64,000 nt of DNA. Origin: Phycisphaerales bacterium. GTDB lineage: Bacteria; Planctomycetota; Phycisphaerae; Phycisphaerales; UBA1924. A model generated the notes under the pieces. The model was not told the DNA's origin. It did no database searches and saw only the letters and a list, made by a program, of their open reading frames with translations. The stretch is taken from assembly GCA_029260475.1 (NCBI GenBank), contig JAJDDE010000124.1, positions 10,335-74,334 on the forward strand, given 5' to 3'. Shown here piece by piece: positions 1,726-61,697 of the stretch; the first letter of the stretch is position 1; every line of letters begins with the position of its first letter. Made by a program: the position numbers and the translations under genes.

Positions 1726-4662
1726 TCATGGGCGCACCCCCCGGGACTCCAGCGTGCGTGAACCCCACGCTGCAGCCGATTCCGCATGCCCCGATCCGGG
1801 CTGCTGCTGGTCCCACACTTCGTAGAGGTGAACGAGCGTGCGCACCGCAGCGTTCACGGCATCGTGAGCGTCGCCGAGCTCTTCCCGAAGCGCACGCTCG
1901 TGTTGTAGGGCGATCGACTCCGCGAGCTCGAACTGCGCGGCATCGATCAAGGCGGTCACGATCGCGGCACGCACCGTTCGGGATGGATCACCGGCCGTGC
2001 CGTGCACACGTTCCGCGAGGCGCAAGGCTTCTTCAAACCAGCTGATCGACTCGTCGGCACGATCTGTCTGGGCGAAGACGGTCGCTAAATCAATCATCGC
2101 GCCAGTTGTGAGGTGATGGCTCTCCCCGAGGGTTCTCCCGGCGGTCGCGATCACCTCTCGCAGGTATGGCTCCGCCTCGTCGAGCCGTCCTTCTGCCTGC
2201 AGCAGGAACCCGACATTGATGATGCCGGTGAGGGTGTCGCCATGCTCGTTGCCGAGCACGCGCCTGGTAGCTTCCAGTGCACGCTTCTGGCAGTGGATGG
2301 CGCCTTCTGCGTCGCCGACGAAGTACAACCCGTATCCGAGGTTGTTGAGAGCGTTCATGGTGTTGGGATGCTCATCGCCCAGCCGCTCGGAAAACACCGT
2401 GTGGGCGGCTCGCAAATGCGGGATCGCATCTTCGTAGCGCTGACTCGCGAGCATGAGGTCCGCCAGATTGCTTGACGCAATCAGCGCGTGATCGCTCTCG
2501 CTCGCCCGGAATCGTCGGTCACGTTCGATCGAGGCGAGGAGAACACGCTCGGCCTCTTCAAGATCGCCCCGACGCACCAATACGAAGCCGAGGTTGTTGA
2601 GCGCGGTCAGTGTCTCGTGGTGCCCTTCGCCCAGCTGCGCATCACCGATGCGCAGAGCCTCTCTGAACCCAGTCTCGGCCTCATCGAGCCGCCCCGCGTC
2701 ACGGAGTGTCTGGGCGTGCTCGTTGATCGCATGAACCGTGAGCGCATCACTATCGCCCAACGCATCCCGGCATCGTTTGATCGCTTCTCGGAGTACGCCC
2801 TCTGATCGTTCGAGCTCTCCCAGTGAGCGAAGCAACGCACCTGAGCGGATCAGTGACGCGAGCGTCTCGGGATGGTCTGCACCGAGTGATGACTCCCGCA
2901 GGCTGAGTGCCTCCGCCTGAGGTCGCTCGGCACGGTCGAACAAGCCGATGTCGCGCAGCGTGTTCGCGCTGGATTGGAGCAACCGGGCACGCAGCACCGG
3001 TTGTTCTGAGAAACGCTGGTCAATGGCCCTGAGTGTCGGATCGAACAGCCCTCGCCCAAGCGTCGCCACCGCGACGTTCGTGAAATTGACATCAGAGAGT
3101 GCGCTGATGGCTCGCTCGTTGTCCGACGCTAAGGCGTCTTCGACCGCCGCGCGCCGGATGATGCCGCCGAGCACGCTCGGCTCGACGTCGCTGAGTCGCT
3201 CGCGTTGGAAGTCCATCATGGCTTGGAGTTCGTTCGAACGATCCTGCGCGGCCCGTGCTGCGGTCTGTGCCGTTTCGCGTTGCTCGGCCTCGGCGGAAGC
3301 CGCTCCCCGTGCGATCTCTGCCTGGCGTCTGGCTTCGACGAGGCCGTAGGTCGTTCCCGCGAGCCCGCCGAGAAGAAGGACCAGGCCGACGGAAGCCGCG
3401 AGAACACCCGCGCGATTCCGTTTGACAAACTTACCGGTTCGGTACATCAGGCTCGGCGGCCCCGCAAAGACCGGTTGATCCTCCAGATAACGCCGGACAT
3501 CTTCTGCGAGCGCGCTGGACGTGGCGTAACGACGCGTGCGATCCTTCTCGAGGCACTTCATCACGATCCAGTCGAGGTCGCCGCGCAGCACCGTGCTGAG
3601 GCTGCGGCGATCGGATCGGTGCTGTTGGGCGGTCTTCTCAGCGGACTCACCCAAGAGCCGAAACCGTGTGCTGGGAGTGTCTGGATCCTCCTCGCGGATG
3701 ATGCGCATCAGCTCTGCAACGCCGCTCTTCAGCAGTTCACGCCCATCGAATGGGGTGGTGCCGGTGAGCAATTCGTACAGCAGCACGCCCAGCGAATACA
3801 CATCGGAGCGTGTGTCGATGTCGAGGCCGGACATCTCCGCTTGTTCGGGCGACATGTACGCCGGCGTACCGATCATCTGGCGGTGCTGTGTGTAGATTGT
3901 CTTCTGTGTCAGCTCCTGATTCGTCGCCTTCGCGATGCCGAAATCGATCACCTTTGCGACCGGCACACCGTCGTGCAATGTCACCAGCACGTTCGACGGC
4001 TTGATGTCTCGATGGATGACGCCCTTCTGATGGGCGTGCTGGATCGCGTGACACACGCTCGTGAAAAGCTCCAATCGTGCCGGTGTCCCGATGCGCTCGG
4101 TGTCGCAGTACTCCAGTATGGAAACGCCTCGGACCAATTCCATCACGAAGAACGGCCGCCCCGTTTCGGACGCGCCCGCGTCGAACACCTTCGCGATGTT
4201 GGGATGGTCCATCATCGCGAGCGCCTGGCGCTCGGCCTCGAATCGGGCGATGACCTGCTCGGTGTCCATCCCGAGCTTGATGATCTTGAGCGCGATGCGT
4301 CGCTTCACCGGTTCCCGCTGCTCTGCGGCCCACACCGTACCGAAGCCGCCCTCACCAATCCGCTCAAGGAGTTTGTAGCGACCGATCATCTGACCGATGC
4401 GCTCGCCACCGATCGATGCTGTGTCGCGCCGCGCTTCGAGCGTGCTGGCTGCCTCGCCCGCGTCCGCATGCGTCGGCTTCGCAAAGAAGCGACCCGCCTC
4501 GGCATCGGCGTTCAGCAGCGCCTCGACCTCGGCGCGGAGCACCGGATCGTTGGCACACGCCTTCGCAAGCGCGTCCCCACGTTGAGCGGGGGACAACTCG
4601 ACGACCTCCATGAACACGCGCCGGGCGTCGTGCCCTCGCTGATGTCTCTGTTGGTCGGTCAT
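1726..4662 (-). CDS. Ser/Thr protein kinase - TM - TPR repeat protein
   Basis: Track ORF is 1726..4722. I take the start at ATG 4660-4662, which overlaps the sigma-factor stop (ATGA). Hanks motifs are present: GEGGFGTVW, ALKIIK, HRDIKPSNVL, DFGIAK, GTPAYMSPE. One TM segment (VLAASVGLVLLLGGLAGTTYGLV) is followed by about 500 aa of TPR_12-like repeats (NNLG...G..EEA). Confidence 0.9.
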   Translation of the reverse strand: MTDQQRHQRGHDARRVFMEVVELSPAQRGDALAKACANDPVLRAEVEALLNADAEAGRFFAKPTHADAGEAASTLEARRDTASIGGERIGQMIGRYKLLERIGEGGFGTVWAAEQREPVKRRIALKIIKLGMDTEQVIARFEAERQALAMMDHPNIAKVFDAGASETGRPFFVMELVRGVSILEYCDTERIGTPARLELFTSVCHAIQHAHQKGVIHRDIKPSNVLVTLHDGVPVAKVIDFGIAKATNQELTQKTIYTQHRQMIGTPAYMSPEQAEMSGLDIDTRSDVYSLGVLLYELLTGTTPFDGRELLKSGVAELMRIIREEDPDTPSTRFRLLGESAEKTAQQHRSDRRSLSTVLRGDLDWIVMKCLEKDRTRRYATSSALAEDVRRYLEDQPVFAGPPSLMYRTGKFVKRNRAGVLAASVGLVLLLGGLAGTTYGLVEARRQAEIARGAASAEAEQRETAQTAARAAQDRSNELQAMMDFQRERLSDVEPSVLGGIIRRAAVEDALASDNERAISALSDVNFTNVAVATLGRGLFDPTLRAIDQRFSEQPVLRARLLQSSANTLRDIGLFDRAERPQAEALSLRESSLGADHPETLASLIRSGALLRSLGELERSEGVLREAIKRCRDALGDSDALTVHAINEHAQTLRDAGRLDEAETGFREALRIGDAQLGEGHHETLTALNNLGFVLVRRGDLEEAERVLLASIERDRRFRASESDHALIASSNLADLMLASQRYEDAIPHLRAAHTVFSERLGDEHPNTMNALNNLGYGLYFVGDAEGAIHCQKRALEATRRVLGNEHGDTLTGIINVGFLLQAEGRLDEAEPYLREVIATAGRTLGESHHLTTGAMIDLATVFAQTDRADESISWFEEALRLAERVHGTAGDPSRTVRAAIVTALIDAAQFELAESIALQHERALREELGDAHDAVNAAVRTLVHLYEVWDQQQPGSGHAESAAAWGSRTLESRGVRP

Positions 4663-5240
4663 CGTGTCCATCCGTTGTCTTCGCTCAGTTCTCGAAACAG
4701 CTTGGCGCGGGCGTACGACCACATGCGTCCCGCAGTCCGTGGCGAGACCCCAAGGGCGAGCGCGGTCTCTTCAACGCTCAACCCTGCGAAAAACCTGAAG
4801 CGAACGATCGTCGCCGCCTCGGGGTCCTCAGCCTCCAAGCGGACGAGGGCCGATTCGACTGCCAAGATTTGTTCAGATCGTGCGGAGGCGAGTGTCCCGA
4901 CGTCCCCGATGTCCTCAAGCCGAGCCCCAACCCCACCTCGCGCAGCCTTCGCCCTCGCATGGTCGATCAGGATCCGGCGCATCGCTTGAGCTGCTGCGGC
5001 ATAAAAGTGTGCACGACCAGACCACGGTATCTCTCGCGGCCCCACCAACCTGAGGTACGCCTCGTGGACGATGGCGGTCGCCGAGAGTGTGTGTCCCTCT
5101 CGTTCTGAGGCGAGTTGAAGTTGGGCGGCCTGCCGCAACTGGTCGTAGACCAAGGGAAGAAGCTCTTCGGCGGCCTCAGAGTATCCCTTCGACGCGCTGC
5201 GCAGAAGCGCATCGATGCTCGGTCTCTGCATTGCACCCAT
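4659..5240 (-). CDS. ECF-type RNA polymerase sigma factor (planctomycete/acidobacterial Sigma70_ECF, TIGR02999-like)
   Basis: 193 aa. Region 2 reads TLSATAIVHEAYLRLVG. The region 4 HTH reads LSVEETALALGVSPRTAGRMWSYARAKL. The stop overlaps the kinase start. Confidence 0.85.
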   Translation of the reverse strand: MGAMQRPSIDALLRSASKGYSEAAEELLPLVYDQLRQAAQLQLASEREGHTLSATAIVHEAYLRLVGPREIPWSGRAHFYAAAAQAMRRILIDHARAKAARGGVGARLEDIGDVGTLASARSEQILAVESALVRLEAEDPEAATIVRFRFFAGLSVEETALALGVSPRTAGRMWSYARAKLFRELSEDNGWTR

Positions 5241-5349
5241 AATTTAAGTGTACTGGAAGATGGGTTCACGATCGCAGCAAATTGGTGCGTTCGCGCGGCA
5301 CCGCATCACACGATCGGCGCGTAGCAGCCACCCTCCATGTCTAATCCAC

Positions 5350-6729
5350 TCACTCGATCCCGCCCAACCCCAACTCCTCCCGCAGCCCATCCAACGCCCT
5401 GAACATGGGCCCAAACGCCGGGAGCGTGTAATGCTTCTTCACGCCACCTTCTCCGTGAGCCAGGTACTGTGACGACAGGTGGGGGTGTTCGGGGTTGGCC
5501 TGCTCGATGAGGTTGGCTCCGGTGGAGCGGAGGTGCCGGAAAGATCGGCCGTCCCTGTTGATCCCCGCCTCGATGACCTGGTCACGGAAGAGAATGGACA
5601 CATAGGTGTCCGTTCGGCCGTCTTGCCACAGCACGTCCCCTCTACGTGATCGCAGCAGCACGTCGTCTGCGGCTTTCGTCTTGCGCTTCTTCAGCAGCTC
5701 GATCGTCTCCGGCCAGAGCTTGTGCACCTGCGGGATCGACGTCTTGTGGCGCGTGCGCTGTATGACGCCCTTCTCGAAGTCGACGTGCTCGTGCTGGAGC
5801 GTGCCCATGTCCGCGAGCGTGTAGCCGCAGTTCAACCCCAGCAGCATGTAGAGCCGTAGCTCATCGGTCGCCAGTTCCCAGATCTTCCGCAGCTCGGAGA
5901 TCTCCCAGTGCTTCGGGGCGGGCCGGTCCTGCTTGACCGAGGCGTAGTCACTCCCCACGGTCCTCGGCATCTCCTTGAAGTGCTCGTGCTTGTACAGCCA
6001 CGCGGCGAACTGTTTGGCCTTCAGCAGCCGGTCCCTGACCGTGCGCTGCTTGGATCCGTTCCCGATCCGCTTCAGCATGTCGATCTGGTAGGCCGCGAAG
6101 CATTTGGGCCGCAGGTCGGCCACCGTCACGAGCTTCTTCTGCTCGCACCACGCCTTGAACGCTCCCATGCTGGTTTGGTACTGGAGGGCGGTGCTCTGCG
6201 CGATCTGCTTTGCGTCGGCGCGTTGGAAGTGAAAGGCGACGAACTCGTCGATCAGGGTGCCGATCTGAGGCGATTCGAGCCCCTCCGCTTCCTCCTCGGT
6301 CATGTCGGCGACCGCGGCCAGACCCAATCGCCCGAACTCCGTGCTCTCGATGTTCTCGCGTGTGGGGTATTCGGGATCGTCTTCGGGCAGCCCGATGTCA
6401 CCGCCCATGGCGACGATGGGGTAATCGCGGTTCATGCGTTGACCGCGACGCTCGAGCTCGTCCGCTCCGTCTCGTGCTGATTCGTGGAGCTGCCGCATGC
6501 GCTGGGCGGATTCATTGCGCTCGGTGCCGGCCTGCACAACCAGCGTGCCCTGTTCCTCACGTTCGAGCTTTTGCTCGAGTTGATTCCACTCCTCGAGCGC
6601 GGCCTGGTACCCCCGCAGGTCGCTCTTCCCGCTGCACCGGCCCTGGCCGAGGTAGTGCACCTGGCCCTTGCGCTTCTTCTTCCAGCACTTGCGCGGTGCG
6701 AACCACGTCAGCTCAAATTTGCGAGGCAT
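5350..6729 (-). CDS. Tyrosine recombinase / phage-type integrase
   Basis: 459 aa. The C-terminal catalytic region shows RTRHKT, FRHLRSTGANLIE (H-x-x-R) and HGEGGVKKHYT (catalytic Tyr). It is visibly less GC-rich than its neighbours and lies about 350 nt from the 3' end of tRNA-Arg. Confidence 0.85.
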   Translation of the reverse strand: MPRKFELTWFAPRKCWKKKRKGQVHYLGQGRCSGKSDLRGYQAALEEWNQLEQKLEREEQGTLVVQAGTERNESAQRMRQLHESARDGADELERRGQRMNRDYPIVAMGGDIGLPEDDPEYPTRENIESTEFGRLGLAAVADMTEEEAEGLESPQIGTLIDEFVAFHFQRADAKQIAQSTALQYQTSMGAFKAWCEQKKLVTVADLRPKCFAAYQIDMLKRIGNGSKQRTVRDRLLKAKQFAAWLYKHEHFKEMPRTVGSDYASVKQDRPAPKHWEISELRKIWELATDELRLYMLLGLNCGYTLADMGTLQHEHVDFEKGVIQRTRHKTSIPQVHKLWPETIELLKKRKTKAADDVLLRSRRGDVLWQDGRTDTYVSILFRDQVIEAGINRDGRSFRHLRSTGANLIEQANPEHPHLSSQYLAHGEGGVKKHYTLPAFGPMFRALDGLREELGLGGIE

Positions 6730-6750
6730 CTCGGCTCCGATCGGTCATCC

Positions 6751-6949
6751 GTATCCCCCAGTGATGCCGCGCGGACTCTCGACGGCAACCGCCAATCGAC
6801 CAGACGGCGTCCCGGTGGTATCCCTTCCGGTATCCCCGGGCAGTCGTGTGTGACCGCGTTCGGGGCGTCGGATCATACCCGATCAGAGGCCGATTCTGTA
6901 TCCCTTTCGTATCCCTTCTGTATCCCCCATGTATCCCTTTGGGGGATAC
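6751..6949. repeat. Array of GTATCCC heptamers (7 direct copies plus 1 inverted copy)
   Basis: Direct copies start at 6751, 6818, 6830, 6898, 6909, 6920 and 6931. The last four are spaced exactly 11 bp apart. An inverted copy, GGGATAC, lies at 6943-6949 and forms GTATCCC-TTTGG-GGGATAC with the copy at 6931. Confidence 0.9.
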
Positions 6950-7039
6950 AGCGGGAGAATCGCAATCGCGGATCATCGTCCGCTTTGGGAATCGACAGGG
7001 TCGCCTAAGGGATCGTAAGCCCGGTATTTGCAGTGGTTT

Positions 7040-7075
7040 ACGAAAAGAAAACGCCCCCTCTGTGAGGGGGCGTTT
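7040..7075 (-). terminator. Rho-independent terminator downstream of tRNA-Arg
   Basis: A 12-bp stem pairs 7049-7060 (AAACGCCCCCTC) with 7064-7075 (GAGGGGGCGTTT) around a 3-nt loop. On the minus strand it is followed by TTTTCTTTTCG. Confidence 0.75.
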
Positions 7076-38846: not shown

Positions 38847-41378
38847 TCAGCGGCCGTCGAGCGCCGCCAGACGTTCGAGACTCGTCGCGATGCGCGGGTG
38901 CCCATCGGGGAACGTCGCGACGAGCACCACGTGGCTCTGCTCCAACGCGCCGCGGGCCTCGTCGTACCGCCCGAGCGCCGTCAGGCAAGCGCCGTAGTTG
39001 TTCCGGAAGAGTGCGGTGTAGATGTGCCCCTCGGGCAGGCTCTCCTCGCACAGCCCGAGGAGGCGTTCGTAGAGCGGCAACGCTTCATCGGCGCGATCCG
39101 TGCGCTGCAGCAGCATCGCCAGATTGTTGTACGAGGACCACGTCTCGGGGTCCTTGCCGCCCGTGGTGCGCTCGCGGAGCTCGATCTGTTCCCGGTACAA
39201 GGCCGCGGCCTCGTCGTCGCGCCCCATGTCCTCGAGCAGGTACGCGCGCGTGTTTATGCTCACCAGCGTCTTGGCGTGCTCGGGGCCGAGCACCTCTCGG
39301 TACCCCGCCAAGGCGACGCGGGTGAGCGCCTCGGCCTCTTCGAGCTCGCCGAGCTGGATCAGCGGCACCGCCAGGTTCCCCATCGCGGTGTACGTCGAAT
39401 GGTGCTCATCGCCATAGAGCGCCCGTCTGGCTGCGAGGATCGCCCGGAACTGCTCGACCACCTCCGCGTCCCGACCGAGCTTCTGGATCGTGCTCGCGAG
39501 CATCGAACGCGCGCCGATTGTCTGCGGATGGTTCGGCCCGAAGACCCGCACGCGCCGCTCCACGACCTCGCTCAGCAGCTCCTCGGCCTCCTGGTACCGC
39601 CCGAGCGCGGAGTACGCCGAGCCTAGGTTGTGCATCAGCACCAGTGTGCGCCGGTCGTCCTTGCCGACGATCGCCTGCGCATCGCGCACGCACCGGGCCC
39701 ACAGCACGAGCGCTTCCTCGGGCTTGCCCGACTCGTGATACACGCGGGCGAGCTCCCCTCGTGCGCTGATCGCTTCGATGGAGTCCTCTCCGTACACGCG
39801 CCGGTTCGTGTCGAGCGCCGCGATCAGTTCCCGCTCCGCCTCGTCGTGCCGCCCCATCTCCGTGAGGGTGGTGCCCAGTGACTGTCTGGCGTCCGCGGTG
39901 TTTGGGTCGTCTTCACCGAACGCCACGACGCTCGCGTCGATCGCCCGCTGCGCCTGCGTGACCGCGTTATCGAAGATGCCCAGCCCGCGATAGGTGTTCG
40001 CCATCGCGAGCCGCACCACCGCTTCCACGCCGGGCTGGCCCTCGAGCTCGCTCGCGTCTGTCGCGGCGCTCGTGTCGAGCAACTCGCGGACCGTCAGTTC
40101 CTCGCCCAGCGCGATCTCGGGGTCTGCCGAGGTGAGCATGTTGGTGAAGAAGCCGTTGATCGCGCTGACACGCCGGGCTTCTTCCTGAGCACGGTTCCAC
40201 CCGCGCGTCGCCTCGACCGCCTGCCACGACACCCCCGCCACGCCACCGCCGATCGCCAGCACACCGAGCAGACCGGCGACCACCAGCCCCGTGTTCCGCT
40301 GCGTGTACCTCCTCGCGACGTACCCGATCGTGCGCGCCCGGGCCTCGACCGGCTCCCTCGCGAGGTACCGCGCGAGGTCCTCACTCAGCGCCGCGGCGGA
40401 GGGGTACCGACGCTCCGGGTCTCGCTCCAGCGCCCGCGCAGCGATCGCCTCGAGGTCGCGCGGCGCAGACGGGTCCAGCGTGCGCAGCGGCGCGGGCGGT
40501 GTGCGCTCGAGGTACGCCGCCGTCTCGGTGCGCGAGACACCGCTCAGGTCGTGGGGCCTCTGCCCGGTCACCAACTCGCAGAGGACCACGCCCATCGCGT
40601 AGACATCCGCGCGCGTATCGGTGTCGGGGTCGGCGCGGAGCTGCTCGGGGCTCATGTAGGGCAGCGTGCCGACGAGCTCGCCCTTGTGCGCCCCCTCGGC
40701 ATCGAGCGCTCGGGCGACACCGAAGTCCAGGATGCGGGGCCGATCGCCCTCGTCCACCAGGATGTTCGCCGGCTTGAGATCGCGATGGACCACGCCACGC
40801 CTGTGCGCGTGCTCCACGCCGGCGCACACCTCGCGCAGCATCTCGATCCTCCGATCAAGAGGCAGCCCCCGTGCGCGCACGTCGAGCGCCTCGCCCGAGA
40901 CGAGCTCCATCGCGAAGTACGGGCAGTCCTCGTCGTCCACCCGCGCAGAACCCGCGTCGTAGATCGCCGCGATAGACGGGTGCTTCAGACGTGCCAGCAC
41001 CCGCGTCTCCTGCTCGAACCGGTCTCGGAGAGCTTCGGTGACGACGTCCGGGCGGATCACCTTGAGCGCGATCTGGCGGAGGGGTGTCTGCTGCTCGGCG
41101 CGGTACACCACGCCCATCGCGCCCGAACCGATCACGTCCAGCACCCGGTACCGCCCGATCCAGCGGTCCGTGTCGTTGCCCCGGATCGTCGGCGCCGGGG
41201 CGGTGCCCGAGACGCCGGACTCGGGAACAATCGTGGCGGTCTCCATCATCGTCATCAGCGTGTCCACGCGCCCGCGCAGAGCGGCATCATCGGCGCAGGA
41301 GTGATCCAGGAAACCCAGGCGCTCTGAGGGCGATAACGCGAGGGCCTCGCGCGCAATCATGTGCGGGTCGGTAATCAC
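38847..41378 (-). CDS. Ser/Thr protein kinase - TM - TPR repeat protein (paralogue of 1726..4662)
   Basis: Carries GSGAMGVVYRA, ALKVIR, HRDLKPANILV, DFGVAR and GTLPYMSPEQ. The TM segment is LVVAGLLGVLAIGGGVAGV, followed by TPR_12-like repeats. The start is GTG 41378 or ATG 41360. Confidence 0.9.
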   Translation of the reverse strand: MITDPHMIAREALALSPSERLGFLDHSCADDAALRGRVDTLMTMMETATIVPESGVSGTAPAPTIRGNDTDRWIGRYRVLDVIGSGAMGVVYRAEQQTPLRQIALKVIRPDVVTEALRDRFEQETRVLARLKHPSIAAIYDAGSARVDDEDCPYFAMELVSGEALDVRARGLPLDRRIEMLREVCAGVEHAHRRGVVHRDLKPANILVDEGDRPRILDFGVARALDAEGAHKGELVGTLPYMSPEQLRADPDTDTRADVYAMGVVLCELVTGQRPHDLSGVSRTETAAYLERTPPAPLRTLDPSAPRDLEAIAARALERDPERRYPSAAALSEDLARYLAREPVEARARTIGYVARRYTQRNTGLVVAGLLGVLAIGGGVAGVSWQAVEATRGWNRAQEEARRVSAINGFFTNMLTSADPEIALGEELTVRELLDTSAATDASELEGQPGVEAVVRLAMANTYRGLGIFDNAVTQAQRAIDASVVAFGEDDPNTADARQSLGTTLTEMGRHDEAERELIAALDTNRRVYGEDSIEAISARGELARVYHESGKPEEALVLWARCVRDAQAIVGKDDRRTLVLMHNLGSAYSALGRYQEAEELLSEVVERRVRVFGPNHPQTIGARSMLASTIQKLGRDAEVVEQFRAILAARRALYGDEHHSTYTAMGNLAVPLIQLGELEEAEALTRVALAGYREVLGPEHAKTLVSINTRAYLLEDMGRDDEAAALYREQIELRERTTGGKDPETWSSYNNLAMLLQRTDRADEALPLYERLLGLCEESLPEGHIYTALFRNNYGACLTALGRYDEARGALEQSHVVLVATFPDGHPRIATSLERLAALDGR

Positions 41379-51133: not shown

Positions 51134-51253
51134 TCCGTTCCGCCGCGAGTGATTCTCGTGAGTGGTCAATAACTTCGGTATTTTTGATGGCCACGCGATG
51201 GTGAGTTGTTAAGTTGGTATCCCAACACCGACCTCGCACGCCGGAGCCCTCTC

Positions 51254-51667
51254 ATGCCAGTCACACTCACCGTACGAGACGAATCAACCACACCGGGCTT
51301 CGAGGGGCACACCTTCGAGCTCGAGTTCCCGACGGAGTCGATCACCGTCCGCGAGATCATCCGCGAGCGCGTCTATCAGGAGGTCGACGATTACAACCGC
51401 GCGATGCAGAATAAAGCGACACCAAGCCGGTACCGCGGCCTCGTTAGCCCCACCGAGCTGGAGGAACATCTCAACGGTGAGCGTCCCGCAACATCGCGCA
51501 AGGCGGACTGGAAGAAGCAGTTTGCGCTGGCCTGCGAGGCGTACGAGCGCAACGGTATCCTCGTGCTCGTGGGTGACCGGCAGACGACCGCCCTCGACGA
51601 GACGATCACGATTGCTCGCGGTATCGATGTCACCTTCCTCCGCCTCGTGATGCTGGTCGGGGGCTGA
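51254..51667 (+). CDS. Small protein with beta-grasp-like pattern ending in Gly-Gly-stop
   Basis: ATG 51254 lies 7 nt after GGAG. 137 aa. The N-terminus is VTLTVRDE / HTFELEFP / ITVREIIRERVYQEV and the C-terminus is GIDVTFLRLVMLVGG-stop. Its TGA shares an A with the next ATG. Confidence 0.6.
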   Translation: MPVTLTVRDESTTPGFEGHTFELEFPTESITVREIIRERVYQEVDDYNRAMQNKATPSRYRGLVSPTELEEHLNGERPATSRKADWKKQFALACEAYERNGILVLVGDRQTTALDETITIARGIDVTFLRLVMLVGG

Positions 51668-54399
51668 TGTTCTTCAAGCGGAACAAGGAGGCGACGGCGA
51701 ATCAGAGCGAGCAGCCGGAGTACGAACTCGTGCTCGAAGGTGTCTCCGCCGAGATTGTGATTCGATGCCTCGACGAGGTCGATCAGAACGGTGTCACGCG
51801 CACGCTTGAAAACGAACTCATCGAGCTTCTGAAGAAGAAGGACCGTCCGCTGCAGGCCCGTGCCCTGTTGGAACTCTCCGCGGTGAGCTGTGAGTGGCGC
51901 CGCCGCCTCGTCCAACTGCCACAGGGATACGCGCACCCCCCTCACAGGAGATTGGTCGAACAGCTCCGCGCGATGAGGCACGTGATCGAGAGTGCCGCGC
52001 GTCGGAAGCTGCCGCTCTCGGCGCAGCAGCTCGGCATGCTGCTGGAGACCACGTGCGAGAACTACATATGGGGCGATAGCACCGTCCTCAAGCACCTCGT
52101 GAATCAGATCGCCAAGCGGTGGGAAGAACTAGAAGAGGAACTGCGTCCGACTCTCATTGAGATATATGCACACACCGATGAGCCGGACCTGAAACAGAAG
52201 ATCGAGCAGCTGCTCAACGAAAAGTCCTCGCCAGCGATCACCGCAGGCGAGGCGTGGACGGTCGCCGCGCTCGAGCACCTGAAGAACGTTGGCTCGCCAC
52301 TTGAAAAGGAGTGGAACGCACTCCTCTGGCACTGCCGCAAGGCTTCGAATGCCAAGCCTTCAGCGAGATGGTCCAAAGAGGGCCACGCGGTGATGGAACG
52401 CATCGGTGTCGATGCGTTCCACGACACCGTCCGCGGCTGGATTGCTCTCCTCCAACATCCTCGAACGGGTGAGATGGCCCGCCCGGACTGGCACGAAGAC
52501 AGCGTGCGTCCGTGGCTCATGGACGACCACCACGCCGACACCATCCGGGGGCTCATCTGGCTGACCGCCGACCGCGAAGACGCCGCCACCGCACGGGCCA
52601 TCGCCGATGCCGCCGTCTCCTGCTACAAGAAGGTTCCGGGCATCGGGCCGCGCGCAACGAAAGTTGGCAACGCCTGTGTCTACGCGCTTGGCGTCATGCC
52701 GGGCGAGTCGGCGCTCGCACAGCTCGCGCGCCTTCGCGTGAAACTCACCTTCGGCACCGCGATCAGCATGATCACCAAGGCCCTCGACCGCGTCGCGGAG
52801 CGGGAGGGCGTGCCGCGCAATGAGATCGAAGAGATCGCGGTTCCCGCCTATGGATTCACCGGAGTCGGTGTGCTTGAACGGGGCTTCGGCGAGCATCGCG
52901 CCACCCTCCGCGTCACCGGCACCTCCGGTACCGGCTCTACCGTGCTTACCTGGATCAACGACAAGGGCAAGGCCGTCAAATCCGTGCCCGCGGCGGTGAA
53001 ACGCGACCACGCCGATGGACTCAAAGACCTCAAAGCCATCGCGAAGGACGTGCAGAAGATGCTGCCGGCGCAGCGCGACCGCATCGATGGTCTCTTCCTC
53101 GAACAGCGTTCATGGTCCGTTAGTGCGTGGCGAGAGCGGTACCTGGATCATCCCGTTGTTGGGACCATCGCTCGCAGGCTCATCTGGGTGCTGGAGGATG
53201 CCGGGGGCATGCACAGCGTCGCGTGGCTGCCGGATGACCCCGAAAGCCCGGTGTTTGCAACGGGCCAACTCGTCAATCCCGCCGGTGAGCCCGTCATCAT
53301 CGATGAGCACAGCGCCACCGTCACGCTCTGGCACCCGATTGACACCGCGAGCGATCCCGACACCGTGGAGACGCGCGCGGACGTCCTCGCGTGGCGCCGG
53401 TTCTATGAGGATCGCCGTATCGCCCAACCCTTCAAGCAGGCGCACCGAGAGGTCTACCTGCTGACCGATGCGGAGCGCGAGACACGCAGCTACTCCAACC
53501 GCTTCGCGGCCCACGTCCTCCGCAACCACCAAGCGACGGCGCTCATGCGCCAGCGCGGTTGGAACGCGCAGCTCGCGATCGCAACGGACTGCGGCGAGGT
53601 CCGTCCGCAAAGAGACATCGAACCGTGGGGCCTCCGCGCGGAGTTCTGGATCGAGGGTGCGCACATAGATCAAGATTACGGTGCCGCATTCACCTACGTC
53701 GTCACCGACCAGGTCCGCTTCTACCAGTATCGGCCGCGCACAACCTGGCGCGAAGAAGAACAGGAACGGCGAGAAGCAACACAGAGACTGATCGAGAGCA
53801 CGGAGGGCCAGCAACTGTCCAATGAGGAGTACCTGAATCTGCTGGCCGGGAACACCGCGGCGAGCCGTCGTCAGGAGCCTCAACCGATCCCGCTTGACGA
53901 GATCCCACCGCTCGTGCTCAGCGAGACGATGCGGGATGTGGACCTCTTTGTTGGCGTCGCCTCCGTCGGTAACAACCCGGAGTGGGAGGACGGCGGTCCG
54001 GGCGGTCACCACCGGGATTACTGGCGTTCCTACGCATTCGGTGAACTCAACGCGACCGCTTCGACGCGAAAGGAACTGCTCGAACGGCTCGTGCCCAGGC
54101 TCAAGATCGCAGAACGGTGCCTCGTCACCGAACGCTTCCTCTTCGTCCGGGGCAACCTGCGTGTCTACAAGATCCACCTCGGGAGCGGCAACATCATGAT
54201 GGAGCCCAACGACCAGTACCTCTGCATCGTCCCGGGGAGAGACAGCGCCGCGGGGCGTACCAACAAGAACCTGCACCTGCCCTTCGAGGGGGATCGCGTG
54301 CTCTCGATCATCCTCAGCAAGGCGTTCATGCTCGCAGCGGACGAGAAGATCACCGACCCCACGATCCGCACACAGATCAATCGCAACGCGGTTTCGTAG
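51667..54399 (+). CDS. Large DUF4132 / MolR(YehH-YehI)-like protein of unknown function
   Basis: 910 aa and less GC-rich than its flanks. The central region (KSVPAAVKRDHADGLKDLKAIAKDVQKMLPAQRDRIDGLF...W..RYLDHPVVGTIARRLIW...QPFKQAHREVY) and the C-terminal YKIHLGSGNIMMEPNDQYLCIVPG match my recollection of DUF4132-family proteins. Confidence 0.65.
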   Translation: MFFKRNKEATANQSEQPEYELVLEGVSAEIVIRCLDEVDQNGVTRTLENELIELLKKKDRPLQARALLELSAVSCEWRRRLVQLPQGYAHPPHRRLVEQLRAMRHVIESAARRKLPLSAQQLGMLLETTCENYIWGDSTVLKHLVNQIAKRWEELEEELRPTLIEIYAHTDEPDLKQKIEQLLNEKSSPAITAGEAWTVAALEHLKNVGSPLEKEWNALLWHCRKASNAKPSARWSKEGHAVMERIGVDAFHDTVRGWIALLQHPRTGEMARPDWHEDSVRPWLMDDHHADTIRGLIWLTADREDAATARAIADAAVSCYKKVPGIGPRATKVGNACVYALGVMPGESALAQLARLRVKLTFGTAISMITKALDRVAEREGVPRNEIEEIAVPAYGFTGVGVLERGFGEHRATLRVTGTSGTGSTVLTWINDKGKAVKSVPAAVKRDHADGLKDLKAIAKDVQKMLPAQRDRIDGLFLEQRSWSVSAWRERYLDHPVVGTIARRLIWVLEDAGGMHSVAWLPDDPESPVFATGQLVNPAGEPVIIDEHSATVTLWHPIDTASDPDTVETRADVLAWRRFYEDRRIAQPFKQAHREVYLLTDAERETRSYSNRFAAHVLRNHQATALMRQRGWNAQLAIATDCGEVRPQRDIEPWGLRAEFWIEGAHIDQDYGAAFTYVVTDQVRFYQYRPRTTWREEEQERREATQRLIESTEGQQLSNEEYLNLLAGNTAASRRQEPQPIPLDEIPPLVLSETMRDVDLFVGVASVGNNPEWEDGGPGGHHRDYWRSYAFGELNATASTRKELLERLVPRLKIAERCLVTERFLFVRGNLRVYKIHLGSGNIMMEPNDQYLCIVPGRDSAAGRTNKNLHLPFEGDRVLSIILSKAFMLAADEKITDPTIRTQINRNAVS

Positions 54400-54431: not shown

Positions 54432-54851
54432 GTGACCGACCACCGCCCCACGACCGCCGCCCACAAGCGCACACGGCGCGATCACGCCGCCGAGACGGCA
54501 GAGGATTACGTCGAGGCGGTCGCGGACATCGGCGAGCGCGACGGCGCCTGCAGGGTGCGCGACCTCGCCGAGCGCTTCGGCGTGTCCCACGTCACCGTCG
54601 TCCGCATCGTGAAACGCCTCGAGGGCGAGGGCTACCTCGCGACCGAGCCCTACCGCCCCATCGAGCTCACGCCCAAGGGCAAACGCCTCGCGAGAGACTG
54701 CCGGGAACGGCACGAGGTCGTGTACCGCTTCCTGCTGGCGATCGGGGTCGATGAACGCGTTGCCGCCATCGATTCCGAGGGCATCGAGCACCACGTCAGC
54801 CGCCAGACGCTGGACTGTTTCCGAGCGATCACCAAGGAGCAGGGGGGCTGA
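54432..54851 (+). CDS. DtxR-family metal-dependent transcriptional repressor (MntR/TroR-like, no SH3 domain)
   Basis: 139 aa with a GTG start. Carries AEDYVEAV, RVRDLAERFGVSHVTVVRIVKRLEGEGYL, LTPKGKRLA, RHEVVYRFL and EGIEHHVS. Confidence 0.88.
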   Translation: MTDHRPTTAAHKRTRRDHAAETAEDYVEAVADIGERDGACRVRDLAERFGVSHVTVVRIVKRLEGEGYLATEPYRPIELTPKGKRLARDCRERHEVVYRFLLAIGVDERVAAIDSEGIEHHVSRQTLDCFRAITKEQGG

Positions 54852-54867
54852 GGCCCTCTCGGGCCGG

Positions 54868-54910
54868 TTGACAAGCCGCTCATCTCGGCTATAGTGTAGC
54901 CTATGCTACA
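54868..54910 (+). promoter_or_regulatory. Sigma-70-type promoter with overlapping palindromic operator for the metal-uptake operon
   Basis: TTGACA (54868-54873), a 16-nt spacer, then TATAGT (54890-54895). The palindrome TGTAGC-CTAT-GCTACA (54895-54910) overlaps the -10 element and the predicted transcription start. Confidence 0.6.
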
Positions 54911-54932
54911 ATTGTCCCCCGGAGCCAGTCTC

Positions 54933-55919
54933 ATGGTGCGATGCCTCTGTGCGTTCTTCGTGCTGGTCGGTGTGATCGCATCGCTCGGGTGCTCGGACTC
55001 GGTGCCGGCGGGAGCCGGTGGCGCCGGTGGCGACGACAACACCCTGCACATCGTCGCGACCACCGGCATGGTGCGCGACGTCGTCGCAGCCGTCGCGGGT
55101 GATCGGGCGGTGGTGACGGGCCTGCTCGGGGCCGGCGTCGATCCGCACCTCTACACCCCCACACGCGCCGACATCCAAAGCCTCATGAACGCCGAGGCGA
55201 TCTTCTACAACGGCCTGCTCCTCGAGGGGAAGATGACCGACGCGCTGATCCGGGCCGCGACCTCCGGCAAGCCTGTCCACGCGGTCACCGAATCGATCGA
55301 CGAGTCCTCCCTGCTCGAACCCGAAGACTTCGAGGGGCACTACGACCCGCACGTCTGGATGGACCCCAGCGCATGGATGCGCACCATCGACGTCGTCCGC
55401 GACGCGCTCACCGCACTCGACCCCGAGGGCGCCTCGGTCTTCGCGTCCAACGCGAAGGCGTACCGTGAGCGCATCGAAGCCCTCGACGCCTACGCCGCGG
55501 GCGTGCTCGCGACCGTCCCGGAGAGCGCCCGCGTGCTCATCACCGCCCACGACGCCTTCAACTACTTCGGGGAGCGCTACACCTACGAGGTCGTGGGCAT
55601 CCAGGGCATCTCCACCGAGTCCGAGGCGGGCGTCCGCGCCATCGATGGGATCGTCACGCTCCTCGTCGAGCGCAGCGTCGGGGCCGTCTTCGTCGAGTCC
55701 ACCGTCTCGGACCGCAGCGTCCGTGCGATCATCGAGGGTGCCCGATCCAAGGGGCACACCGTCGTCATCGGGGGCGAACTTTTCTCCGATGCGATGGGCG
55801 ACCAGGGCACCTACGAAGGCACCTACATCGGCATGATCGACCACAACGTCACGACCATCGCCCGCGCCCTGGGCGGCGAAGCGCCAGCGCGCGGCATGCA
55901 AGGGAAACTCGCCGAATGA
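54933..55919 (+). CDS. Metal ABC transporter substrate-binding lipoprotein (cluster A-I, TroA/ZnuA/MntC-like)
   Basis: The start is ATG 54933, 8 nt after GGAG; the track begins at 54903, which probably lies at or near the transcription start. Lipobox IASLGC. Candidate metal ligands sit in [24 protein letters not shown] and LFSDAMG. Confidence 0.88.
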
Positions 55920-56764
55920 CCACCGGCATCCACCCCGCGCTCCCCGATCCGGTCCTCGCCCAGGGCCTGGCCGAACGCCCCGAGCACTCGCCCGAGAGCC
56001 CTCTCTCGATCCACGCGATGACCGTCGCTTACCAGCGCAAGCCCGTGCTCTGGGACGTGGACTACGACGCGCCGCCCAACAAACTGATCGCCATCGTTGG
56101 ACCGAACGGCGCGGGCAAGAGCACGCTGATCAAGGCGTGCCTCGGCCTCGTGCCGCGTGCTTCGGGGCTCGTCGAGTTCTGGGGCCAGGAGTACAAACGC
56201 GCGCGATCGCGCATCGGGTACGTGCCCCAACGCGAGAGCGTGGATTGGGACTTCCCTGTCTCGGCGCTGGACGTGGTGTGCATGGGGAGGTACCGCAAGA
56301 TCGGCTGGTGCCGCCCCGTCTCTCGCGCGCACAAAGACGCGGCCCTCGCGTGCCTCGAGCGCGTCGGCATGCACGAATTCGCCAAAAGGCAGATCAGCCA
56401 ACTCTCGGGCGGGCAGCAGCAGCGCGTCTTCCTGGCGCGTGCACTCGCGCAGGAATCGGACCTCTACGTTATGGACGAGCCCTTCGCCGGCGTGGACGCC
56501 GCCACCGAACGCGCGATCGTCGAGGTGCTGCGCGAACTCAAGACCACGGGGAAAACCGTTGTCGCGGTCCACCACGACCTGCAAACCGTCCCCGAGTACT
56601 TCGACGACGTCATCCTCCTGAACATGCGCGTCGTCGCCTCGGGCCCCGTCCGCGACGTCTTCACGCGCGAGAACCTCCAACGCACCTACGGCGGTCGCCT
56701 CACGCTCCTCTCCGAGGCCGCCGAGGCGATGGCCCGCGCAGCCTCCGGCGAGATGCCCGCGTGA
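55916..56764 (+). CDS. Metal ABC transporter ATP-binding protein
   Basis: Walker A is GPNGAGKST, the signature is LSGGQQQR, and Walker B is [16 protein letters not shown] overlap with the SBP gene. Confidence 0.92.
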
Positions 56765-59918: not shown

Positions 59919-61697
59919 ATGACACGCCCGATCCCGATCGCAGCCCTCCTCCTGGCGGCCACCGCCGCCGCGCTCGCCCAGTCCGCCGACACCAACGACG
60001 ACGGCGCCACAACGCTCGAAGAATTCAAGGCGTACGTCACGCAGCGCGCACCGGACCTCAGCGATGAGATGGTCGCCCGCATCGCGACACTCGTGGACAA
60101 GGACGCCGACGGGACGATCAGCGCCAACGAATTTGCGGCCCGCATGCACGCCTTCCGTGACGTACGCCTCGGCGAGCGCACGCCAGACGCTCCCGCCACA
60201 CCAGCCACGACGCACCGCGAAGCGCAGCAGAACCCACCGGTCCGCGTGACCATCCCCGCGTTCACGCCCTCCGACGACGCAACGCTCCTCCTGATCACCG
60301 CCGACGAACTCGCCGAGGCGTGGGTGCCCTTCGCGCACTGGAAGACCCGCCAGGGCAAGGCGACGAAGATCCTCACGGTCGCGCAGATCGACGAGACGTA
60401 CGAGGCGCCGTCCATCCAGGAGAAGATCCGCCTCTGCGTTCGCGAGCACATCGAAGAACACGACACCCGATGGGTCCTTCTCGGCGGCGACTGCCTCCCC
60501 GATGGCGGCCTCGTGCCGGGCGGGCATCGCACCGTCCACAGCCAGGAGCGCAACGGCATCCCCACCGACATCGTCTACCTCAGCCCAACCAACTGGGACG
60601 CCGACAACGACGGCATCTACGGCGAGTGGGACGACGACCAGGGCGCGATCACCTACCCCGACGGCAGCGTCGGGCTCGGGCGAGTGCCCGTGCGCACCGC
60701 GGCCGACGTGCGCGCGTTCACGGACAAAGTCATCGCCTACGAATCCGCCTACCCCACCGATGAATTCGCCGAGCACATGGTCTACACCTGCACCGACTCA
60801 CCCGCCTATCCCAAAGTACGCGCGAGCTGGGACCGCTACCTCTCCAAGCAGTGGGAGGGCGACGTGCAGCGGTTCTTCAACACCGAGACCCCCTGGGACC
60901 GCGAGGGCCAGCCCGGCAGCCACGACCTCAGCGACCTCAACCTCGTGAGCCTGATCAACAAGCAGGAGACCGGCAAACTCCACATCCACGGGCACGGCCT
61001 CATCAACTTCTGGGTCCTCGAGAACTCCACCTTCGACGCCGCCGACGTAGGGCGACTGCACAACGACGGCGCGTACCCCCTTATCACGACCGTCTCCTGC
61101 TTCACGGGCCAGTACGACGCTGCCGAAGACCCCTCCATCGTCGAGTCCATGCTCCGCGCCCCCGGCGCAGGTTCCGTCGCGATCGTCGCGCCGGTCCGCA
61201 CCGGCAAGCCGCACTTCCACAGCGCCAGCGACTTCCGCCTCATGGTCAGCGAGGGCAAGCTCGACGGCACCACAATGACCATGACCAAGTACTGGGCCAA
61301 CGGCCTGGGCCAGGGCCTCACCACCGGCGAGGCGCTGATGAAGTCCAAGGGCGAGCTCGAAGCCGACGCCCGCAAAGCCGCGTCCTACCACCTCTGCATC
61401 TGCGAGCTCAACCTGCTGGGCGACCCCACCCTCGATATGCGCGCCTCCGCACCCCGCGCCCCCACGATGTCCGCGCCCGCAGGACTCCGAGTCGGCGCCG
61501 AGCGACTGACCATCACCACCGATGCACCGGGCGCGACGCTCTGCCTCTGGAAGGGCAGCGAGGTCTATGAGGTGATCACGACCGACGACAAGGGGCGTGC
61601 GCGGGCGCTGCTCAACACGTCAACACCGGGCGAACTGCTCATCACCCTCAACGGCCCGGGCTTGAACACCACCACAACGAGCCTCACGGTGCGCTGA
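59919..61697 (+). CDS. Secreted EF-hand pair + peptidase C25 (gingipain-like) cysteine protease
   Basis: It has a signal peptide and two DxDxDG loops (DTNDDGATTLEEF, DKDADGTISANEF). The C25-like region has WVLLGGD, the candidate catalytic His in LHIHGHG and the candidate catalytic Cys in ITTVSCFTGQYD. Confidence 0.75.
   Translation: MTRPIPIAALLLAATAAALAQSADTNDDGATTLEEFKAYVTQRAPDLSDEMVARIATLVDKDADGTISANEFAARMHAFRDVRLGERTPDAPATPATTHREAQQNPPVRVTIPAFTPSDDATLLLITADELAEAWVPFAHWKTRQGKATKILTVAQIDETYEAPSIQEKIRLCVREHIEEHDTRWVLLGGDCLPDGGLVPGGHRTVHSQERNGIPTDIVYLSPTNWDADNDGIYGEWDDDQGAITYPDGSVGLGRVPVRTAADVRAFTDKVIAYESAYPTDEFAEHMVYTCTDSPAYPKVRASWDRYLSKQWEGDVQRFFNTETPWDREGQPGSHDLSDLNLVSLINKQETGKLHIHGHGLINFWVLENSTFDAADVGRLHNDGAYPLITTVSCFTGQYDAAEDPSIVESMLRAPGAGSVAIVAPVRTGKPHFHSASDFRLMVSEGKLDGTTMTMTKYWANGLGQGLTTGEALMKSKGELEADARKAASYHLCICELNLLGDPTLDMRASAPRAPTMSAPAGLRVGAERLTITTDAPGATLCLWKGSEVYEVITTDDKGRARALLNTSTPGELLITLNGPGLNTTTTSLTVR

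Follow-up and report, generated by a model that had tools for sequence, protein, structure and literature searches.

We describe here a two-gene cassette in a 64,000-nt stretch of a contig from a Phycisphaerales bacterium (JAJDDE010000124.1; the whole stretch is referred to as the window, and coordinates given for the cassette are window positions). The cassette encodes a 137-aa protein with a free C-terminal Gly-Gly (GG), the product of open reading frame (ORF) 1 (51254-51667, + strand), which is predicted to have a β-grasp fold of the MoaD/ThiS/ubiquitin-like type, and a 910-aa DUF4132/DUF7737 protein, the product of ORF2 (51667-54399, +). ORF1 and ORF2 homologs form a pair that is near-obligate in both directions, usually translationally coupled, and present in at least nine bacterial phyla. 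We tentatively propose that the two proteins make up a two-subunit carrier or modifier system in which the GG tail of ORF1 would work, through covalent chemistry, in or on its DUF4132 partner, a reading that we consider possible rather than probable.

The Gly-Gly Terminus of the ORF1 Family

The C-terminal end of ORF1 is ...GIDVTFLRLVMLVGG, with the tail LRLVMLVGG encoded at 51638-51664 (+), its two glycine codons at 51659-51664 and the TGA stop codon directly after them at 51665-51667. No match to ORF1 was found in Pfam, NCBIfam or PADLOC. Its family comprised 263 proteins in a word-indexed search and 2009 clusters at 50% identity in an exhaustive search (E ≤ 0.001), and homologs were found at more than 547 loci among the GTDB species representatives. 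The conservation of the terminal GG in homologs, which an earlier note on this DNA had put forward, was evident in each sample: GG directly precedes the stop codon in 118 of 120 database homologs, in 79 of the 80 genome loci found via ORF1 and in 137 of 147 representatives of the 50%-identity clusters, and those homologs without it were mostly truncated or frameshifted. As this ending has been kept across homologs that share just 35-70% identity, it is not a product of chance. In an alignment of 150 diverse members, the only fully invariant columns were G136 and G137. Residues 53-85 of ORF1 are also conserved (G62, L63, P66, E70, L73, and N74). One apparent fusion of a DUF4132 protein with an ORF1 homolog (P0374, 969 aa) was found to be a frameshift artefact, with residues ~640-830 out of frame.

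Pairing With DUF4132-DUF7737 Proteins

Among the 80 genome loci retrieved via ORF1, a DUF4132 homolog directly adjoins the ORF1 homolog on the same strand in 77. Two of the three unpaired loci are at contig ends and the third is a true orphan (L049, 7728-8396), the sole evaluable genome locus at which an ORF1 homolog, itself ending in GG, is without an adjacent DUF4132 gene. For the reverse test, 80 metagenome loci were retrieved using patterns from ORF2 alone. An ORF1 homolog adjoins ORF2 in 67 of these (64 of the 67 ending in GG) and, since 10 of the other 13 loci are cut off upstream, at least 67 of 70 evaluable loci are paired. The predicted co-occurrence of the two genes was thus upheld from either side. 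The usual order is ORF1-ORF2, with the order ORF2-ORF1 seen in ~11 loci, mainly from Planctomycetaceae, Isosphaeraceae, and Pirellulales. In 56 of 66 loci with ORF1 first, there is a start codon at -10 to +8 nt from the ORF1 stop codon. In the window the ORF2 ATG and the ORF1 TGA have one A in common (cTGATG, 51664-51669, +), as had been described earlier, an overlap that indicates translational coupling. The pairwise identities of the ORF1 proteins and of the ORF2 proteins were correlated (r = 0.46, 72 loci), a value that none of 999 Mantel permutations reached.

No conserved third gene beside the pair was detected by BLAST clustering of all flanking ORFs from 168 loci. The other clusters were either alternative-frame shadows of ORF1 and ORF2 or generic planctomycete paralog families (DUF1559, Ser/Thr kinase-WD40, NuoF, ABC, and ECF sigma). 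The earlier statement that the pair has no adjacent gene for an E1, E2 or JAB protein proved correct for its neighbors in the window, and a ThiF-type motif was present in only one of the 168 loci, 7 kb from the pair.

The module was found in Planctomycetota (several orders), Gemmatimonadota, Acidobacteriota, Cyanobacteria, Bacteroidota, Actinomycetota, Alphaproteobacteria, and Deinococcota, with some copies on megaplasmids. At three loci (L017, L039, and L076) two tandem DUF4132 paralogs accompany a single ORF1 homolog. A DUF4132+DUF7737 protein with 27% identity to ORF2 is encoded on an Acetobacter plasmid (L084, 3988-7338); no GG partner is present on either side of it, as the gene before it encodes an unrelated 132-aa protein with a non-GG end and an insertion sequence remnant follows. 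This branch appears, from its sequence, to be without a ubiquitin-like protein (Ubl) partner.

Predicted Fold of ORF1

The structure of ORF1 was modeled using AlphaFold2 with an alignment of 150 sequences, which yielded a mean predicted local distance difference test score (pLDDT) of 78.7 and a predicted TM-score of 0.72 (single-sequence modeling gave a pLDDT of 36). The model has the strand and helix order of a β-grasp protein (a fold defined as β-β-α-β-β-β with a mixed sheet), with β1 at residues 3-11, β2 at 19-25, α1 at 32-52, α2 at 86-98, β3 at 102-106, β4 at 117-119, and β5 at 125-130. The tail, residues 131-137, is predicted to be unstructured and free (block pLDDT 64). Residues 53-85 were modeled with low confidence and, because their sequence is nonetheless conserved, this is likely to be a partner-binding segment, and the low confidence would fit one that becomes ordered only on binding.

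Foldseek searches of the PDB with this model agreed with the β-grasp fold that the earlier note had proposed, in that the matches near the top were β-grasp folds only. They included the ubiquitin-like domain of HOIL-1L/SHARPIN (probability 0.98), MOCS2A/MoaD in human molybdopterin synthase (5mpo_A; probability 0.96, TM-score 0.53 on the target), ubiquitin bound to Uba1 or Uba6, SUMO, NEDD8, the Ras-binding domain of PI3K, and the C-terminal β-grasp domain of staphylococcal superantigen-like proteins. A search of BFVD with the model also returned β-grasp matches. In the 150 family members, the commonest sub-threshold Pfam match was ThiS (PF02597), seen in five of them (best E 0.084). The only match of ORF1 to a PDB sequence, by sequence and profile searches, was Tetrahymena p19, which we judged to be a chance match. 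Taken as a model-based assignment, these data suggest that the ORF1 family is an addition to the prokaryotic ubiquitin-like/sulfur-carrier repertoire, and one for which there is no Pfam model.

ORF1 differs from MoaD and ThiS in that it does not belong to the ThiS/MoaD profile family and has ~55 additional residues, with an insert that separates α1 from β3. It also resembles the archaeal SAMPs, Thermus TtuB, and Urm1, which are dual sulfur carriers and protein modifiers. These have a ThiS/MoaD-like fold and a ready-made GG, need no processing protease, and function under stress; the E1-like enzyme that activates them is shared and need not be encoded nearby. Unlike the ORF1 family, those proteins are recognizable ThiS/MoaD members and are not coupled to any single large partner gene. 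ORF1 is not a Pup or UBact: those are intrinsically disordered small proteins that end in GGQ or GGE and have a Dop/PafA ligase nearby, whereas ORF1 is predicted to be folded, stops directly after GG, and has no ligase gene nearby.

The DUF4132-DUF7737 Partner

The assignment of ORF2 as a DUF4132 protein with an additional C-terminal domain was substantiated by Pfam, with matches to DUF4132 (PF13569) in residues 434-632 (52966-53562, +; E 1e-49, 169.1 bits against a gathering cut-off of 27) and to DUF7737 (PF24879) in residues 799-904 (54061-54378, +; E 3e-39, 133.7 bits against a gathering cut-off of 27). There was no match to WGR or DUF5724 in Pfam, and none to NCBIfam. Both domains are present in all 120 of the ORF2 database homologs listed, and DUF7737 was present in every GG-partnered DUF4132 homolog that we examined. 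The literature on DUF4132 is tiny, and we found no functional study in it; a literature search for DUF7737 returned no paper.

An alignment of 40 homologs divided ORF2 into two parts. The first ~190 residues (51667-52236, +) are poorly conserved and probably form helical repeats, and this segment has the lowest GC content in the block (59%); designed helical repeats matched ORF2 weakly and only over this variable N-terminus, and we do not consider them relatives. Residues 190-910 contain many invariant Trp, Arg, His, Asp, Glu, and Gln residues. Within this region, residues 191-433 (52237-52965, +) are a conserved pre-DUF4132 segment with PGEAW..., KPSxKW, and YRKVPGxGPRAVKVGNA... motifs. DUF4132 itself has invariant QPFKQAxRExY (587-597), YSNRxAxH (609-616), and HQ (621-622) motifs. 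The conserved linker that follows, residues 633-798 (53563-54060, +), has invariant D641, R657, E659, W661, D681, Q682, R684, E753, D757, D759 (as D757xD759), W773, D775, and GG (the WxDGG motif), and DUF7737 has the conserved segment YKIHLGSGNIxMEPxDxYLCIVP, which includes the HLGSGN motif. Such a pattern of conservation looks like that of an enzyme or of a binding module of some intricacy.

A PHROG family of unassigned function, phrog_20839, matches ORF2 residues 341-652, which span the DUF4132 region, with E 7e-20. It follows that DUF4132 proteins are encoded in some genomes of phages or prophages.

DUF4132 is also found in E. coli MolR and YehH-YehI. The E. coli DUF4132 genes are located with yehF (WGR) and yehLMPQ (MoxR, vWA, and SWIM), whereas WGR, MoxR, and vWA genes are missing from the surroundings of the pair in the window, and YehI, unlike ORF2, has no DUF7737. 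We ruled out the product of the adjacent small E. coli gene yehK as a GG partner since it is unrelated and has a non-GG end.

The Module in Deinococcus

Judged from their sequences, drA0165-drA0166 of Deinococcus radiodurans is the same module as ORF1-ORF2 and the respective proteins are true homologs. DRA0165 (134 aa) ends LLRLTALAGG, matches the ORF1-family profile (hhalign probability 98.2%, E 2.7e-14), and is encoded 2 nt upstream of DRA0166. The latter differs from ORF2 in its length (1626 aa) and in having DUF5724 in addition to DUF4132 and DUF7737. The operon lies between YeeE/YedE-trxC and a stretch with modA and thiS-thiG.

A binding site for DdrO, the radiation/desiccation response motif (RDRM), was located 63 nt upstream of DRA0165 (GGTTATGCTATTTACATAAC; L083, 1078-1097), and a near-identical palindrome is present upstream of the D. 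psychrotolerans homolog (L085, ~1562-1581). An RDRM site that binds DdrO has been reported for the operon, along with its strong derepression upon depletion of DdrO and an IrrE-dependent increase in the DRA0166 protein after mitomycin C treatment (PMC8533742). DR_A0165, under the name SEP068184, was reported to be increased after gamma irradiation and H2O2, and its deletion to raise, and its overexpression to lower, survival of H2O2; it also pulls down the neighboring thioredoxin (PMC9650054). The structure that Zhou et al. predicted for it had as its nearest entries 5MPO, 3PO0 (SAMP1), 1WGK, and other MoaD-type or Urm1-type entries (PMC9650054). The same authors described DR_A0165 as confined to Deinococcus and without an RDRM (PMC9650054). 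Both statements are contradicted here, the second because the RDRM was verified upstream of DRA0165 and a counterpart palindrome is present in D. psychrotolerans.

The earlier note had supposed that such a pairing had never been described. This is mostly, but not wholly, true. The drA0165-drA0166 pair has been reported (PMC8533742) and the MoaD-like structure of DR_A0165 noted (PMC9650054), so that the gene pair was previously known in one organism only, as two unknowns, the smaller of which was called a Deinococcus-specific small peptide. Ubiquitin, the Gly-Gly terminus, and a functional link to DUF4132 go unmentioned in both papers, and neither recognized the family. Against the literature searched, the apparent novelties are the ORF1 family and its size, its GG terminus, its near-obligate cross-phylum coupling to DUF4132-DUF7737 proteins, and its interpretation as ubiquitin-like or carrier proteins.

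A Possible Two-Subunit Carrier or Modifier System

In the scheme that we tentatively favor, ORF1 would be a β-grasp protein of the MoaD/ThiS/ubiquitin class whose Gly-Gly carboxylate is exposed from the time of its synthesis, and translational coupling would ensure that it and the DUF4132-DUF7737 protein are made together stoichiometrically. ORF1 would dock on ORF2 within the C-terminal two-thirds, the part that is conserved, and its flexible LVGG tail would be the working end, entering ORF2 as the MoaD tail enters MoaE and the ThiS tail enters ThiG. The terminal glycine would be activated as an acyl-adenylate and then converted to a thiocarboxylate or an amide/isopeptide bond, most likely by a MoeB/ThiF-type housekeeping enzyme whose gene is elsewhere. 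A role in a stress response may be proposed, as DNA damage and oxidants induce the counterpart of the system in Deinococcus. We infer both the physical complex, in which the tail would be inserted into ORF2, and the covalent chemistry on the glycine together with the identity of the activating enzyme. Covalent activation is favored because the exact stop after GG is otherwise hard to explain.

The arrangement has parallels in MoaD-MoaE, ThiS-ThiG, and CysO-CysM, in each of which a small GG β-grasp protein is encoded beside, and in many cases overlapping with, a larger protein that receives its tail, and in which the E1-like activator may be elsewhere; MoaD/MOCS2A is, in addition, among the best structural matches of the ORF1 model. 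It differs from MoaD-MoaE in that the partner is a DUF4132/DUF7737 protein of 900-1700 aa with no detectable similarity to MoaE. Carrier/synthase pairs often have their E1 elsewhere in the genome, the established case being E. coli moaD-moaE and moeB. Of the two possible activators, a MoeB/ThiF-type E1 acting in trans and ORF2 itself, we consider the first to be somewhat the likelier, since ORF2 has neither an adenylation signature nor similarity to ThiF-type E1s and since the E1s of such pairs are commonly encoded elsewhere.

The earlier note had named four outcomes that would speak against a Ubl working with a DUF4132 protein, namely a small protein of some other fold, homologs that lack the GG or extend beyond it, genes that do not co-occur in other genomes, and an ORF2 that does not match DUF4132. 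All four were looked into and none was what we found. There are, nonetheless, several results that weigh against our proposal. The Foldseek E-values for ORF1 are weak (0.02-0.2, none at 0.001), for which reason we consider the β-grasp fold to be consistent with the model rather than proven, and the TM-scores on the query are low (0.3-0.45), which we attribute to a 35-residue insert. No member of the ORF1 family matched the ThiS or ubiquitin profiles at threshold, and hhalign found nothing between the ORF1 profile and genuine ThiS. For ORF2, sequence and profile searches against PDB sequences returned no solved relative, and hhalign detected no similarity of its profile to ThiF-type E1 (probability 0.6%) or to MoaE. 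The published co-immunoprecipitation in Deinococcus is uninformative, with 157 proteins recovered with both the N- and the C-terminally tagged DR_A0165 bait (PMC9650054), and DRA0166 does not appear in the supplementary text that was searched. With regard to the stress response, E. coli molR, which encodes a DUF4132 protein with WGR, is among the genes listed as having a LexA box (PMC6590174), a parallel to damage induction in Deinococcus. There was no enrichment of known SOS boxes or of the Deinococcus RDRM upstream of 68 loci, including that of the window; none of these upstream regions has an RDRM-like site, and the DdrO site is absent from the planctomycete loci. Owing to this lack of enrichment upstream of planctomycete-type loci, a damage-response role outside Deinococcus is an extrapolation only.

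The remaining result of this kind is a deeper branch of the family in Bacteroidota, in which ORF1 relatives encoded upstream of giant DUF5724-DUF4132-DUF7737 proteins have non-GG ends. The small proteins of Bacteroides finegoldii (L168, 927-1346; hhalign probability 97%), Chondrinema (L170, 301-726), and Fulvitalea (L171, 301-774) end in ...LAMLSGRLW, ...LTFLAGSIW, and ...LTFLAGSTY, respectively. Chondrinema also has a GG-type pair, and in B. finegoldii a rhomboid protease gene is located immediately upstream of the small non-GG protein. These forms may either be pro-forms that are trimmed or have tails that act non-covalently. Given the SGRLW, AGSIW, and AGSTY ends, a free GG is not required across the superfamily unless these proteins are processed.

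This branch keeps alive an alternative in which ORF1 is a regulatory or structural β-grasp subunit whose tail plugs a groove in its partner and whose glycine is never modified. The pairing is retained in Bacteroidota with tails ending in G-[S/R]-x-[W/Y], there is no E1 in cis, and translational coupling would suit a stoichiometric complex of this type. Set against these points is the exact GG-stop in 97-99% of more than 300 diverged sequences, which is the signature of a carboxylate that is used chemically; a tail that merely docks would be expected to accept other small residues or extensions. We therefore regard a purely non-covalent role as unlikely, albeit one to be taken seriously.

A second alternative, which we view as unlikely to a slightly greater degree, is self-sufficient conjugation. 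Here activation of the ORF1 GG, and its ligation to a small molecule, to other proteins or to the DUF4132-DUF7737 protein, would be carried out by the DUF4132-DUF7737 protein, which would then represent a novel type of Ubl-activating or Ubl-ligating enzyme, free of E1, E2, and JAB. The cassette consists of just two genes and has moved among nine or more phyla without a conserved third, so all activities may be on board, the Ubl is ready-made with its GG, and ~700 conserved ORF2 residues include dozens of invariant polar and aromatic ones, as is typical of enzymes. Yet no nucleotide-binding or adenylation motif was recognized in ORF2, the dissimilarity to ThiF-type E1 and the lack of a solved structural relative noted above count here too, and there is no invariant cysteine in the alignment of 40 homologs, in which C853 and C818 are near-invariant only. 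Other bacterial systems in which a Ubl or target with a C-terminal glycine is used in conjugation (Bil, Bub/6E, and CBASS Cap2-Cap3) differ from the pair in that their operons always encode E1, E2, and/or JAB, none of which was found at the 168 loci.

It is considerably less probable that the pair acts in conflict or self-harm, as a module that is triggered by stress and lowers survival when induced; a novel abortive or anti-phage system would be one example. Such a role would fit the patchy distribution, lower GC content, and megaplasmid copies of the module, its damage-inducible expression in Deinococcus and the effects of DR_A0165 deletion and overexpression on H2O2 survival (PMC9650054), as well as the PHROG match to the DUF4132 region. 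PADLOC, however, returned nothing significant for ORF2 (a weak match to OloA, 2e-4, is confined to the variable N-terminus), no phage record encoding ORF1 was found, and the flanking genes belong to ordinary housekeeping or paralogous families and not to defense islands.

The name MolR (molybdate metabolism regulator) derives from E. coli genetics. That name, the MoaD/MOCS2A fold matches (also PMC9650054), and the position of the D. radiodurans operon between YeeE/YedE-trxC and modA, thiS-thiG might suggest that ORF1 is a sulfur carrier dedicated to the metabolism of molybdenum or thio-cofactors. This is the least probable alternative, as no molybdenum or sulfur gene is conserved beside the pair in 168 loci, moeA and moeB are not co-regulated with drA0165-drA0166 in Deinococcus (PMC8533742), and E. 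coli YehI has neither DUF7737 nor a GG partner.

Composition and Surroundings of the Cassette

The cassette is preceded by an AT-richer spacer (51134-51253, +; 55% GC) that is presumed to contain its promoter. A consensus sigma-70 scan of the spacer gave no match. The Shine-Dalgarno sequence GGAG (51243-51246) precedes the ORF1 ATG by 7 nt; this, together with the ORF1 coordinates and the stop directly after GG, agrees with the earlier reading of the sequence. GGAGG-type Shine-Dalgarno sequences and TATAAT-like elements are also present upstream in homologous loci.

The visibly lower GC content of the block was borne out by measurement. Positions 51134-54399 have 62.9% GC against a window mean of 67.2% (standard deviation 2.2%, windows of equal length), and the block ranks fifth lowest among 608 sliding windows. 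The GC content at third codon positions is 0.80 for ORF1 and 0.79 for ORF2, and is 0.86-0.90 for eight neighboring genes. Horizontal acquisition of the cassette, which had been suggested earlier, is plausible given these differences from its neighbors and the presence of the module in many bacterial groups.

The genes flanking the pair in the window encode a tricorn-type S41 protease, a β-helix protein, a MntR/DtxR-type regulator, and ZnuA/ABC transporter proteins, and from their sequences no functional link to the pair is evident. The MntR/DtxR-type metalloregulator gene, followed by those for ZnuA and an ABC ATPase (54432-56764, +), begins 33 nt past the ORF2 stop codon on the same strand; this neighborhood is not kept at other loci of the pair. 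Elsewhere in the window, the stretch of lowest GC content (~3801-7066, 62.6%) overlaps a Ser/Thr kinase-TPR gene and a 459-aa ORF (5350-6729, -) that has no Pfam match. Two Ser/Thr protein kinase-TPR paralogs are present in the window (1726-4722, -, and 38847-41378, -), and a gingipain-like peptidase C25 protein (59919-61697, +) has a pair of EF-hands at its N-terminus.

Implications for DUF4132 Proteins

The large proteins of the DUF4132 (MolR/YehI) family are widespread, and the family spans an SOS-listed E. coli gene and a DdrO-regulated Deinococcus gene. The near-inseparable pairing of one of its branches with ORF1 is the first functional handle on it. In addition, the Deinococcus "small peptide" SEP068184 can be reinterpreted as a member of the ORF1 family. 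A more far-reaching view, which we offer as speculation that is unlikely to be right, is that DUF4132-DUF7737 proteins represent an unrecognized class of Ubl-handling enzymes. With a dedicated GG MoaD-like protein, each would make up the smallest of systems for activation or conjugation, of two genes and free of E1, E2, and JAB, for DNA-damage and oxidative stress in at least nine bacterial phyla, and the MolR/YehI orphans would be derivatives that lost their Ubl. The pairing suggests chemistry at, or through, the terminal glycine of ORF1 that can be tested and, if ORF2 does activate ORF1, the pair would constitute an E1-independent route to Ubl activation.

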